Positions 24,662 to 30,815 of a DNA stretch of 30,815 nucleotides are shown one piece after another. The notes beneath the pieces are model-generated. The model made no database searches. It saw nothing but the letters and a program-made list of their open reading frames with translations, and was not told where the DNA came from. The translations under genes were made by a program, and so were the position numbers. The stretch's first letter is position 1. Every line of letters starts with the position of its first letter. The DNA is from a virus: UHGV virus genome UHGV-0021747; one strand, given 5' to 3'.

Positions 24662-24756
24662 GCCATCGATATCAAGTACGCAAAACCATGTGTGATTCGG
24701 AATTCCTACAGGTGGTATTTGTTGCCCACGTCAGCGTTTATCAATGAGATATACAC

Positions 24757-28678: not shown

Positions 28679-28992
28679 TTATCTACATTCCTGAACCAAA
28701 CGCAGATCGGACCGTCTTCTGTATCGTGAATCGAACCGACAAACCATCCTTCTCCATCTGGCATGCTTGGCTCCCATCCACTGATGTTTTGATTCCCATC
28801 TTCAAAATACGCGTCAATTACCGTTTGATTGTTGTCGTTTTCCATTTCAACAATTGATGATTCAATGCCATGCTGCTTGCAGAAAGATCTGAACTCATCA
28901 GCTGAAATTACCTCTCTATCCCCAAACAGGTTGGCGTATTCTGGGTGCGTCCAGTAGCCATCCTCGCTTCGCTCTACTACTAATGCTTCCAT
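28669..28992 (-). CDS. Acidic hypothetical protein (107 aa), immediately downstream of N
   Basis: GGTGAG Shine-Dalgarno overlaps the N stop, with an 8-bp intergenic gap. Strongly acidic (many D/E); no family recognised. Confidence 0.6.
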   Translation of the reverse strand: MEALVVERSEDGYWTHPEYANLFGDREVISADEFRSFCKQHGIESSIVEMENDNNQTVIDAYFEDGNQNISGWEPSMPDGEGWFVGSIHDTEDGPICVWFRNVDKAE

Positions 28993-29000
28993 ATCTCACC

Positions 29001-29327
29001 TCAAATAAGTGGTTTACTGCCTAATTTCATTTTCTGGCGACCAACACAAGTTACACCCATTTCACTGCGTGGCTTGCTGTACCATGTGCGCTGATTCTTG
29101 CGCTCAATACGTTGCAGGTTGCTTTCAATCTGTTCGTGGTATTCAGCCAGCACTGTAAGGTCTATCGGATTCAGTGCGCTTTCTACTCGTGATTTCGGTT
29201 TGCGATTCAGCGAGAGAATAGGGCGGTTAACTGGTTTTGCGCTTACCCCAACCAACAGGGGATTTGCTGCTTTCCATTGAGCCTGTTTCTCTGCGCGACG
29301 TTCGCGGCGGCGTGTTTGTGCATCCAT
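29001..29327 (-). CDS. N: Antitermination protein N (lambda-type)
   Basis: MDAQTRRRERRAEKQAQWKAANPLLVGVSAKPVNRPILSLNRKPKSRVESALNPIDLTVLAEYH.QIESNLQRIERKNQRTWYSKP reads as essentially lambda N. Start taken at the internal Met of the supplied ORF. Confidence 0.9.
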   Translation of the reverse strand: MDAQTRRRERRAEKQAQWKAANPLLVGVSAKPVNRPILSLNRKPKSRVESALNPIDLTVLAEYHEQIESNLQRIERKNQRTWYSKPRSEMGVTCVGRQKMKLGSKPLI

Positions 29328-29499
29328 CTGGATTCTCCTGTCAGTTAGCTTTGGTGGTGTGGTAGGTGGGAGACCCATTTCGACCTGCTTCGGCCGACTT
29401 CAATTCGGCAATAGTTCCGCAGGCCTCGCCGCTTTACGTGCGACATATTCCCATCCATGAACCCTTCACCACACCCCAAAGCCTTCTGCTTTGAATGCT

Positions 29500-29530
29500 G
29501 CCCTTCTTCAGGGCTTAATTTTTAAGAGCA
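29500..29530 (-). promoter_or_regulatory. nutL site: boxB GCCCTGAAGAAGGGC and boxA-like TGCTCTTAA
   Basis: Reverse complement of 29500..29514 is the lambda boxB hairpin exactly; boxA-like sequence at 29522..29530. Confidence 0.85.
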
Positions 29531-29574
29531 CCACCTTCATGGTGGTCAGTGCGTCCTGCTGATGGCTTAAAATA

Positions 29575-29654
29575 TACCTACAGGTAAAACATCTGTCTAT
29601 ACCTGTAGGTAAATATAATTGATGTGAGAGTTTACCTGCTTGAATTTTCAGGTA
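29575..29654. promoter_or_regulatory. OL/pL operator region: palindromes TACCTACAGGTA (29575..29586, 29600..29611) and split TACCTG-N10-CAGGTA (29633..29654)
   Basis: Repeated 12-bp palindromes upstream of the N leader, identical to sites upstream of cI. Confidence 0.55.
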
Positions 29655-29671
29655 ATTAATTTTTTGGATTG

Positions 29672-29697
29672 ATATAAAAAAGCCCGCTTTGCGGGCT
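29672..29697 (-). terminator. Rho-independent terminator ending the cI operon
   Basis: Hairpin agcccgc-aaa-gcgggct followed by uuuuuuaua on the minus strand. Confidence 0.6.
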
Positions 29698-29708
29698 GAA
29701 AGGAGATG

Positions 29709-30023
29709 TCAGAAGCTATTTGGATTGCTTGGCCATTGCGGCAATTTTGATTCTACTGGGGTGTGTTTGGGTTTGAGTCCGTTTAAGTAGTCAAGGCGCT
29801 CAATGGCGCATTTATACATAGCAATCTGCTCTGATGACATGTCGTCGTATGACATGCCTTTGAACTTTTTAATTATCGATTCTGCCTCATGTATAAGATG
29901 CTTCTTCCTCATGAGTTCAGCTGTATGCTTAGAGCTTACAGGAGATAACTTTGCCCATATGAAGCAGATGATTACAACAGCGACTACTATGCCGGGTATA
30001 AACATTTGCTGCTTTATCCTCAA
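29709..30023 (-). CDS. Small single-pass membrane protein (104 aa) translationally coupled to cI
   Basis: ATGA overlap with the cI stop. N-terminal hydrophobic helix IPGIVVAVVIICFIWAKL then a charged soluble domain. AT-rich; followed by the operon terminator. Confidence 0.6.
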   Translation of the reverse strand: MRIKQQMFIPGIVVAVVIICFIWAKLSPVSSKHTAELMRKKHLIHEAESIIKKFKGMSYDDMSSEQIAMYKCAIERLDYLNGLKPKHTPVESKLPQWPSNPNSF

Positions 30024-30706
30024 ACTTTTGGCAGATCGTCCTGGTCTACGTACCTGGTGTGTTTCACAATAGCTGAAACAAAATGCATTTTATCAACTTC
30101 TTCAACAGGAAGAGTGATTGGGCGGTGATCACTGTTTATGCTACTAAACTGATAATCACCGTCTCTTGTTTTGTTCATGATCTTTATCATGTTGTGACCG
30201 TCTTTGGTCCTTACAAAGACTTCATCACCTGGATGTACTGGCGTATTTGGTTCAATAACAACATATTCTCCTGACTGAATCCTTGGCCACATGCTGTCAC
30301 CCTTAACCTTCAGACCGTAAGCATCTTTATCGCCGCTGTAGATGCTTAACCAACCGGATCTGAATTCAATCATATCCACTGAGCCATCAACTCCCAAAAC
30401 GGCTTCACCAATTACCGGAACAAAACCCGCACGAACGTTACCCGCAAACTCAAGATGGTCCGTAGCTCCAGCTTTACCATCTGCAAGCATGTCCATCCAT
30501 CCGCGTGGGAGATTAAAAGATTTTTCAATTAGTTCCATCATATCGTCAGCAATGCGTTTTTTTCCGCTTTTTCCTTCCGGATACAGCATTCTGGAAACGT
30601 ATGATGGTTCCCTTTCTATTCGACGAGCCAACTCTGAGGCCTTTCCATTACAGAATCGGTCTCTTATCTCTATCAGCCTTAGTCGTCTTTGTTCGTATTT
30701 ATCCAT
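30020..30706 (-). CDS. cI: cI-type prophage repressor (N-terminal HTH plus S24 LexA-like autopeptidase domain)
   Basis: Ala-Gly cleavage-site candidate (GKAGAT), GDSMWP catalytic Ser motif and a downstream Lys (MIKIM); 228 aa. Confidence 0.9.
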   Translation of the reverse strand: MDKYEQRRLRLIEIRDRFCNGKASELARRIEREPSYVSRMLYPEGKSGKKRIADDMMELIEKSFNLPRGWMDMLADGKAGATDHLEFAGNVRAGFVPVIGEAVLGVDGSVDMIEFRSGWLSIYSGDKDAYGLKVKGDSMWPRIQSGEYVVIEPNTPVHPGDEVFVRTKDGHNMIKIMNKTRDGDYQFSSINSDHRPITLPVEEVDKMHFVSAIVKHTRYVDQDDLPKV

Positions 30707-30726
30707 GATTTAATTCTATCTTTGAT

Positions 30727-30778
30727 TACCTGCCGGTAAATAACCTATGGGTATTGATTTGCTTTTTACCTACAGGTA
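30727..30778. promoter_or_regulatory. OR operators: TACCTGCCGGTA (30727..30738) and TACCTACAGGTA (30767..30778) between cI and the cro start
   Basis: Same palindrome family as OL. GGAAGGAG Shine-Dalgarno at 30799..30806 points to a rightward cro-like gene starting just past the window. Confidence 0.5.
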
Positions 30779-30815
30779 AACTCATCTTATTCAACAACGG
30801 GAAGGAGATAGCAAA

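Follow-up and report, generated by a model that had tools for sequence, protein, structure and literature searches.

The immunity switch of phage lambda, with its divergent cI and cro genes, has three right operators (OR), where the rightward promoter PR lies over OR1 and the repressor promoter PRM over OR3, and three left operators (OL) over the leftward promoter PL. Integration host factor (IHF) and a distal UP element have reportedly been described upstream of lambda PL. Of the operators of phage 933W, three lie at OR and two at OL. Five operators of 15 bp have been described for this phage (PMC3317979). Here we analyse the immunity region of the virus genome UHGV-0021747, a stretch of 30,815 nucleotides (the window), in which a gene for a cI-type repressor is flanked by a set of predicted 12-bp operators and PL is preceded by a composite element with two inverted operator half-sites. 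Very probably, the region comprises the left and middle parts of a lambda-style immunity switch of the type of coliphage mEp043, and as such is already in GenBank as mEp043.

As in lambda, cI and cro diverge, PR lies over the first and PRM over the third of three OR sites, PL carries operators, and cI is followed by an accessory gene and a terminator. Also shared are the PL start point (+1) and the start of the leader, a probably leaderless cI mRNA, an identical boxB, an identical arginine-rich motif in N and an A-tract upstream of PL (at -103, compared with -102 in lambda). The window differs from lambda in the length of its operators (12-14 bp, TACCYRYRGGTA, as opposed to 17 bp), in the spacings between O1 and O2 (25 bp versus 24 bp) and between OR2 and OR3 (15 bp versus 23 bp), and in having two rather than three canonical OL sites. 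The N-terminal domain of its cI has no detectable sequence similarity to that of lambda; one base of boxA, the C-terminus of N and the interior of the N leader differ as well, and lambda has rexAB where the window has an open reading frame of 104 codons (orf104). With 933W the window shares the C-terminal S24 domain family of the repressor (the mEp043 record notes its cI as 'similar to CI of 933W') and the lack of a canonical third OL site, so that it is possibly a second two-site OL switch after that of 933W. The N-terminal domain of 933W cI is unrelated, however, and its 15-bp operators differ in sequence from the 12-mers of the window, as do the ACAA-N6-TTGT operators of 434 and Sf6.

The 12-mer TACCTNNAGGTA occurs three times in the 30.8-kb window (29575-29586, 29600-29611 and 30767-30778), and all three copies flank the cI gene. 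An earlier note on this DNA had listed these three positions and had left open that the motif might be frequent throughout the genome by chance; the copies are exact, there are no others, the expectation is 0.01 exact matches, and three were reached in 0 of 100 shuffles. The variant listed at 30727 was also recovered, with one mismatch (TACCTGCCGGTA, 30727-30738). While the flanking sites listed are thus real, one had been overlooked: AACCTATGGGTA at 30742-30753 (TACCCATAGGTT when read on the cI strand), 25 bp from the 30767 site, a distance equal to that between 29575 and 29600. The 12-mer had further been called a palindrome. It consists instead of a 5-bp inverted repeat with a central dinucleotide that is not symmetric, since TACCTGTAGGTA, the copy at 29600, is the reverse complement of the TACCTACAGGTA found at the other two positions. 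With high confidence, we predict from these sequences that the operators of mEp043-type cI are 12-bp TACCYNNRGGTA sites, three at OR and two at OL.

At OL, OL1 (TACCTACAGGTA, 29575..29586) and OL2 (TACCTGTAGGTA, 29600..29611) are both exact, lie 25 bp apart and are kept together in most related loci. They bracket the -35 hexamer of PL; no canonical third site is present, only the composite element with its half-sites. At OR, OR1 (TACCTACAGGTA, 30767..30778) is an exact match at -72/-73 from the cI start, OR2 (TACCCATAGGTT on the cI strand, 30742..30753) a two-mismatch match at -47/-48, and OR3 (TACCGGCAGGTA on the cI strand, 30727..30738) a one-mismatch match at -32/-33 from the cI ATG. OR2 is 25 bp from OR1, centre to centre, and is separated from OR3 by 3 bp (ATT).

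To obtain comparative evidence, we collected loci by the N-terminal domain of the repressor alone, 28 of them from one-genome-per-species contigs and 80 more from IMG/VR. They came from Escherichia, Leclercia, Pantoea, Yersinia, Dryocola, Edwardsiella, Brenneria, Klebsiella, Izhakiella, Aeromonas, Xanthomonas, Stenotrophomonas, Alcaligenes, Castellaniella and others. Nearly all loci have TACC(Y)NN(R)GGTA at -72/-73, -47/-48 and -32/-33 from the cI start, and the layout OR1-N13-OR2-ATT-OR3 is kept at fixed offsets from that start in 99 loci with the same DNA-binding domain. Sequence logos were built on 58 distinct OR strings. Of the features they show, the TACC and GGTA cores had entered into the selection of the strings, unlike positions 5-8, the invariant spacers CAA and ATT and the right half of OR2, which is degenerate. 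The consensus was TACCYRYRGGTA for OR1, TACCYRYAGGtt, with its degenerate right half, for OR2, and TACC-nnnn-GGTA for OR3, in which positions 5-8 are degenerate and position 5 is mostly not Y. The invariant CAA precedes OR2 and is the TTG of the PR -35 hexamer on the opposite strand; the invariant ATT separates OR2 from OR3. In most loci, two OL sites 24-26 bp apart follow the cI operon; the upstream one adjoins a -35 hexamer (TAGACA, TTGACn or TTGATT) and the downstream one provides the first TA of the -10 hexamer.

The recognition helix of the window repressor is inferred to be PSYVSRM. In Mannheimia phage 587AP2, whose N-terminal domain is 40.8% identical, the helix reads PSYVARM, and the same OR1/OR2/OR3 layout is found with TACC-N4-GGTA sites; SfV-type repressors have the helix PTQTSRF and operators of the form GTACC-N5-GGTAC. 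These pairings indicate that operator specificity follows the recognition helix. As comparative evidence the footprinting is as strong as such evidence gets, and it argues strongly that the 12-mers are the repressor's operators. The proposal that this repressor has an operator family of its own on both flanks is therefore backed in about 100 loci from several orders of Proteobacteria. The N-terminal domain family spans Enterobacterales, Aeromonas, Pasteurellaceae, Xanthomonadales and Alcaligenaceae, and adds a well-defined repressor/operator specificity for comparative and synthetic-biology work.

The operators coincide with the promoters called by a scan for sigma-70 hexamers. PL (29599..29563, minus strand) matches 10 of 12 hexamer positions, with -35 TAGACA (29599..29594), a 17-nt spacer and -10 TATATT (29576..29571). 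Its +1 is placed at 29563, at the same A of AUCAGCAGG as in lambda, and it is here that lambda homology begins. OL2 adjoins the -35 hexamer on its upstream side, and OL1 lies between the hexamers, its terminal TA being the first two bases of the -10. PRM (30740..30713, minus strand) matches 9 of 12 positions (-35 TTTACC, 30740..30735; 16-nt spacer; -10 TAGAAT, 30718..30713), and OR3 lies within its -35 and spacer. Because the cI ATG follows the PRM -10 hexamer by only 7 nt, an arrangement that recurs in related loci, the cI mRNA is probably leaderless, as in lambda. PR was read from the sequence on the plus strand (30754..30782), with -35 TTGATT (30754-30759), a 17-nt spacer and -10 TAAACT (30777-30782). 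In related loci its TTG is conserved, as is a TAnnnT whose first two bases are the terminal TA of OR1; OR1 itself overlaps the PR spacer and reaches two bases into the -10, and OR2 lies between the -35 hexamers of PRM and PR.

The layout is thus lambda-like, with O1 over the -10 hexamer, O2 beside the -35 hexamer of the lytic promoter (at OR also beside that of PRM) and OR3 inside PRM. As a dimer, the repressor would recognise operators of 12 bp (probably 14 bp) with the consensus T-TACCYRYRGGTA-A. Bound at OR1 and OR2, it would turn PR off and stimulate PRM, and at the weaker OR3 it would turn PRM off; the activation and any cooperativity involved are, like the binding itself, read from sequence, position, conservation and homology. 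Cro, encoded just past the end of the window, would use the same operators. Transcripts from PL would cross a lambda-type nutL and encode an N with a lambda-identical RNA-binding end, which would give lambda-like antitermination specificity.

From N to cro, the window (28987-30815) is 98.7% identical in DNA sequence to mEp043 (JQ182734 / NC_019706 / PV340537), in which the gene order is N-PL-orf-cI-cro-cII-O. The cI protein (228 residues; 30706..30020, minus strand) is 100% identical to mEp043 cI. Collinearity with mEp043 puts the start of the cro coding sequence, on the plus strand, at the last base of the window (30815), leaving a short control region between the divergent cI and cro. The Cro homologue is a 76-residue YdaS/PHROG-35 repressor-like protein. 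The mEp043 records annotate a putative PL, estimated to match the window PL when indels between both sequences are allowed for, and do not annotate operators. In near-identical loci, mEp043 (L037) among them, OL1, OL2 and both arms of the composite element change at central non-core bases only. Because cI is 100% identical and the operator changes are restricted in this way, repressor specificity and operators are predicted to be the same as those of mEp043, which differs from the window in the interior of the N leader and in small polymorphisms.

The module was found in 52 of 5426 complete Escherichia coli genomes, always complete and with 96-99.6% identity. An immunity type present in about 1% of complete E. 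coli genomes thus has its operator set and control-region layout defined. By assignment mEp043 belongs to the genus Aguilavirus, whereas the virion genes of the window are Sf6/HK620/Gally-like, and the comparison indicates that one immunity cassette resides in two different kinds of phage, an Sf6/HK620-like podovirus backbone and mEp043. The region had been described as a mosaic lambdoid immunity region, and this description holds: homology to lambda-type N regions ends at about 29577, at the edge of the PL -10 hexamer and OL1. In other respects the region is a routine, textbook lambdoid mosaic. As a separate observation, positions 1-24000 of the window carry virion and early-left genes that are Sf6/HK620/Gally-like with 96-97% identity.

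The only Pfam domain found in cI is the C-terminal S24 domain (PF00717, E=1.4e-17), in agreement with its description as a cI-type S24 protein different from that of lambda. An AlphaFold2 (AF2) model with a predicted local distance difference test (pLDDT) score of 81 has N-terminal helices at residues 3-18, 23-29, 34-40 and 54-63, a disordered linker of 18 residues (75-92) and a beta-rich C-terminal domain, for which Foldseek returned the C-terminal domain of lambda cI, LexA and UmuD. We infer from the AF2 helices and the context that the N-terminal domain is a helix-turn-helix. S138 and K175 are invariant in the alignment of cI homologues and 37 residues apart. The Ser/Lys dyad of LexA has the same spacing. 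Induction would proceed by RecA-stimulated self-cleavage through this Ser138/Lys175 dyad. Over residues 20-221, cI is 49% identical to 933W cI, from which it differs in the type of its N-terminal domain (P0087 versus window). More generally, the alignment of graded homologues has one S24 C-terminal domain family on at least three unrelated N-terminal domains, which suggests that shuffling of N-terminal domains is shuffling of specificity within one repressor family. The types seen in homologues P0021-P0107 were MDKYE...PSYVSRMLY, MDNKEIRK...AQLSQLL and that of 933W.

Several points weigh against this account of the switch. That the repressor binds the 12-mers is a prediction from sequence comparison, as is any binding by Cro or IHF. 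The N-terminal domain of cI gave no Pfam helix-turn-helix match, and a search of PDB sequences with cI gave no meaningful match, and none to this domain. PR matches the sigma-70 consensus at 8 of 12 positions, which is below the threshold of the scan, and was not called by it. OR2 and OR3 are 15 bp apart, centre to centre, unlike in lambda, and lambda-style pairwise cooperativity is therefore not simply transferable. Finally, the repressor of 933W, whose C-terminal domain is of the same family, is reported not to bind cooperatively to adjacent sites (PMC3317979).

The composite element lies at -69 to -103 of PL (29632..29666, minus strand). Two arms, TTACCTG (distal, 29655..29649) and CAGGTAA (proximal, 29638..29632), are combined in it with an A-tract (29654-29666) and an IHF-like core ATTCAAGCAGGTA (29645..29633). 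On the other strand, TACCT (29633-29637) and AGGTA (29650-29654) are separated by 12 nt and form TACCTG-N10-CAGGTA, or, in extended form, TTACCTG-N10-CAGGTAA at 29632-29655; TACCT-N12-AGGTA occurs at that spacing only here in the window. Conservation was measured within the sub-family that has a TAGACA PL and a leader of lambda type, on 23 diverged sequences. The two arms (TTACCTG and CRGGTAA) vary as little as OL1 and OL2 do, with an information content of 8-9 on a scale of 0-9, whereas the spacer between OL1 and OL2 and the outer flanks are randomised (0-3). Since the arms are invariant while the flanks are randomised, the element is under selection. The 10-bp 'spacer' between the arms is itself conserved as (A/T)TCAA.

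Within the immunity family, 36 of 50 distinct regions match the IHF consensus WATCAANNNNTTR with at most two mismatches at one and the same place, 33-34 bp upstream of OL2, compared with 2% at other offsets. Lineages that lack one or both arms are among these regions, and two lineages (L071 and L078) match perfectly. A wider survey covered 50 distinct PL-upstream regions that share only the start of the lambda-type leader and include lambda-, 434-, mEp213- and 683R2-like and many other immunity types. The survey gave a generic PL-upstream consensus AAAAAATAAATTCCTTT-AAAATCAAA at -103 to -77, so that an A-tract-CCTT-TCAA element is common to the PL regions of most immunity types surveyed. Judged by sequence, this generic element is probably an IHF/UP element. 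Lambda has CAAAAAATAAATT at -102, compared with -103 in the window. The distal arm is this family's form of the generic CCTT box, and TTACCT is found at that position also in mEp213 and in locus L345, whose operators are unrelated. The proximal arm CRGGTAA, by contrast, was found only with the mEp043 immunity type among 58 PL-upstream clusters, and it sits where other types place OL3. In the reported lambda element, too, a WATCAA-like core and an A-tract are found some 80-100 bp ahead of the PL start. In the mEp043 type, unlike in lambda, two inverted half-sites of repressor type enclose the core, and the GTA of the proximal arm takes the place of the TTR in the IHF consensus.

Taken together, these comparisons indicate that the split element is most likely primarily an IHF-binding and/or distal UP element. 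The proximal arm is an immunity-specific operator half-site grafted onto it and may offer the repressor a weak extra contact. Two observations stand against the IHF/UP assignment. The core ATTCAAGCAGGTA of the window has two mismatches to WATCAANNNNTTR, with the A-tract upstream, and within the immunity family both arms are as invariant as true operators, which a generic IHF/UP function alone leaves unexplained.

The earlier note had pointed out that the split form has the operator half-sites with 10 bp of additional spacer and might bind differently or bind Cro. The arrangement is real and conserved; its reading as a stretched operator is not the best supported one. According to that reading, the element is a genuine repressor (or Cro) site of unusual geometry, with half-sites one extra helical turn apart, that is bound either by one dimer reaching on flexible linkers or by two half-engaged dimers. 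As the missing OL3, it could act in long-range OL-OR looping, in shutting off PRM and/or in competition with IHF. We regard this as possible but doubtful. Both arms are perfect extended half-sites, inverted and on the same helical face; they have the information content of OL1 and OL2, far above that of spacer and flanks, and the proximal arm varies only between CAGG and CGGG, as full operators do (RGGTA). Among the clusters surveyed, this arm was found with the mEp043 type alone, the family keeps TTACCTG where the generic element varies (information 1-5), and a third site is otherwise missing at OL. In addition, a Rahnella locus (L027) with TACTC..GAGTA operators has TTACTCT at the distal-arm position, and the predicted 18-residue linker of the cI model could span the extra 34 Angstrom. 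The C repressor of Rhizobium phage 16-3 reportedly binds operators with different half-site spacings, so that there, too, one repressor would use the same half-sites at two spacings; in that case the spacings differ by 2 bp rather than 10 bp, the protein is unrelated, and no IHF-like core is embedded.

Against a stretched operator, many heterologous immunity types carry the distal arm, A-tract and TCAA core equally far from PL, and TTACCT stands there in mEp213 and L345 despite their unrelated operators. The 10-bp spacer is conserved and IHF-like, which is unexpected for a mere spacer. The proximal arm is missing from several lineages with this type of repressor (L092-L110) and both arms from others (L067-L075 and the L005 type), no such site exists at OR, and covariation of the arms that preserves symmetry is weak, with one case (L009) as opposed to two that break it (L007, L088). 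Nothing in the sequence comparisons bears on Cro at this site. The early-left regions of SfV and Hafnia yong2 are organised differently and are uninformative as to whether the split site tracks repressor specificity. A combination of both readings, which we hold to be tentative, is a hybrid site in which two repressor half-sites one helical turn further apart flank the IHF core, and repressor and IHF compete or cooperate on 35 bp that replace OL3. Such a site would stand in for OL3 through PL anti-activation and/or OL-OR looping; its operator geometry would be new among cI-type repressors, and through it a host nucleoid protein would be directly linked to the immunity switch. Binding of the composite element by both IHF and repressor would show how two-site OL switches do the job of lambda OL3.

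An upstream promoter, PL2, has been reported in lambda. In the window, the proximal arm with its flank, CAGGTAAACT, could similarly be the -10 region of a second leftward promoter upstream of PL, with the A-tract as UP element and the half-site as its control. The sequence CAGGTAAACTC at 29638..29628 repeats the junction of OR1 and the PR -10 hexamer at 30772-30782, and TAAACT/TAATCT after the proximal arm is conserved in the family. Such a promoter would, however, lack an acceptable -35 hexamer at 15-18 nt (AATTAC at the 17-nt spacing matches at 0 of 6 positions) and a TG-extended -10, and the promoter scan calls nothing there, which makes it improbable. More improbable still is an operator role for TTCCTACAGGTG at 24703-24714, which had been noted as a distant operator-like sequence and could be thought of as an extra operator for early-left genes. 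The sequence is present as described, in a gap between two called open reading frames, and has 10 of 12 bases in common with OL1. Yet it is a two-mismatch match of a kind that occurs 15 times in the window (five of these being the true operators), compared with 6.85 +/- 2.8 expected, so that it is at chance level. It alters A2, which is invariant in the 58 distinct OR strings, and A12, which is invariant in OR1 and OR3; it is unpaired and without a promoter. The homologous sequence in CUS-3 reads TTTCAACAGATG, differs at 4 of 12 bases and lies inside an annotated open reading frame.

The operator set, its conservation with this repressor N-terminal domain across orders of Proteobacteria and the composite element upstream of PL appear to be undescribed. 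For mEp043 and the operator 12-mers, the searchable literature yielded only phage lists and primer matches and no description of operators, and it contained none of six common variants of the 12-mer in a phage context. A BLAST search with the 61-bp element returned mEp043 only. In a scan of viral contigs for the pattern TTACCTNAAAANTCAA, almost all of the matches listed were random AT-rich sequence.

Some further observations concern the element and the operators. In the form AAAAAATAAAT-nCCTTT-AnnATCAA, the generic element lies at a fixed distance from PL in loci L242-L359 (29640-29666 in the window), lambda included, and seems more general than the reported lambda-specific description. Three loci of another immunity type (L263, L280 and L286) with ATTTAGC-N5-GCTAAAT operators have, right after the TCA core, ATTTAGCTAAAT, with the same half-sites at a much shorter spacing; a third OL site of odd geometry beside the generic element may thus not be unique to the mEp043 type. 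The split repeat was also considered as an RNA hairpin and rejected: it lies downstream of the operon terminator, and changes in the arms are mostly not compensatory. A one-mismatch operator match with an exact TACC-N4-GGTA, TACCGCCAGGTA, at 1460-1471 is unpaired, far from the immunity region and in a part of the window that matches late/virion genes of related phages; it is probably due to chance. A local hypervariable patch was seen in the PL spacer between OL2 and OL1, just downstream of the -35 TAGACA (29589-29593). Among 27 distinct, otherwise about 99% identical copies of the region, bases 29591-29593 have 3-4 alleles each, whereas nearly all other variable columns inspected have two; the central dinucleotides of OL1 and OL2 also vary.

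The cI gene is followed directly by orf104 (30023..29709, minus strand), which was taken from the open reading frame list. It is thus located where lambda has rex, before the intrinsic terminator of the cI-orf104 operon (29697..29681, minus strand), for which the scan gave a 7-bp stem with 6 GC pairs and a T-tail. The gene is also present in mEp043, where it is annotated as hypothetical, and matches PHROG 10450, 'unknown function' (E=1e-54); no match was found in Pfam or, for defence systems, in PADLOC. It is possibly an exclusion or accessory gene expressed from the prophage.

The N gene and nutL had been called lambda-identical. The N antiterminator (108 residues; 29327..29001, minus strand; PF11438 N36, E=1.5e-26) aligns with lambda N at about 98 of 107 residues. 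Residues 1-63 are identical, K64E is the only difference within residues 1-86, and the arginine-rich motif that binds boxB is identical. The last ~22 residues are of a different allele, common to mEp043, Sf6, HK633 and Sf101, with which the N region shares 97-98% nucleotide identity; K64E and this diverged C-terminus correct the description. In nutL (29500..29530, minus strand; aligned with lambda 35518-35550), boxB GCCCTGAAGAAGGGC (29500-29514) and the 8-nt spacer between boxA and boxB are indeed identical to lambda. The boxA (29523-29530) reads TGCTCTTA as opposed to CGCTCTTA and matches at 7 of 8 bases, so that 'lambda-identical' does not extend to it, and one further base just upstream differs. 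A lambda-type nut specificity is nonetheless a justified prediction.

Relative to lambda, about 110 nt of the N leader (~29357-29469) have been replaced. A scan of 28900-30815 against Rfam found nothing above threshold. The 236-nt leader (29328-29563, minus strand) folds much better than shuffled sequences (z = -3.9). Its replaced interior is unrelated to that of lambda and is flanked by lambda-like complementary arms, GGCUUUGGGGUGUGGUG and CACACCACCAAAGCU, and the same N-leader variant is present, as single-piece matches, in CL707, Louie and vB_EcoP-683R2.

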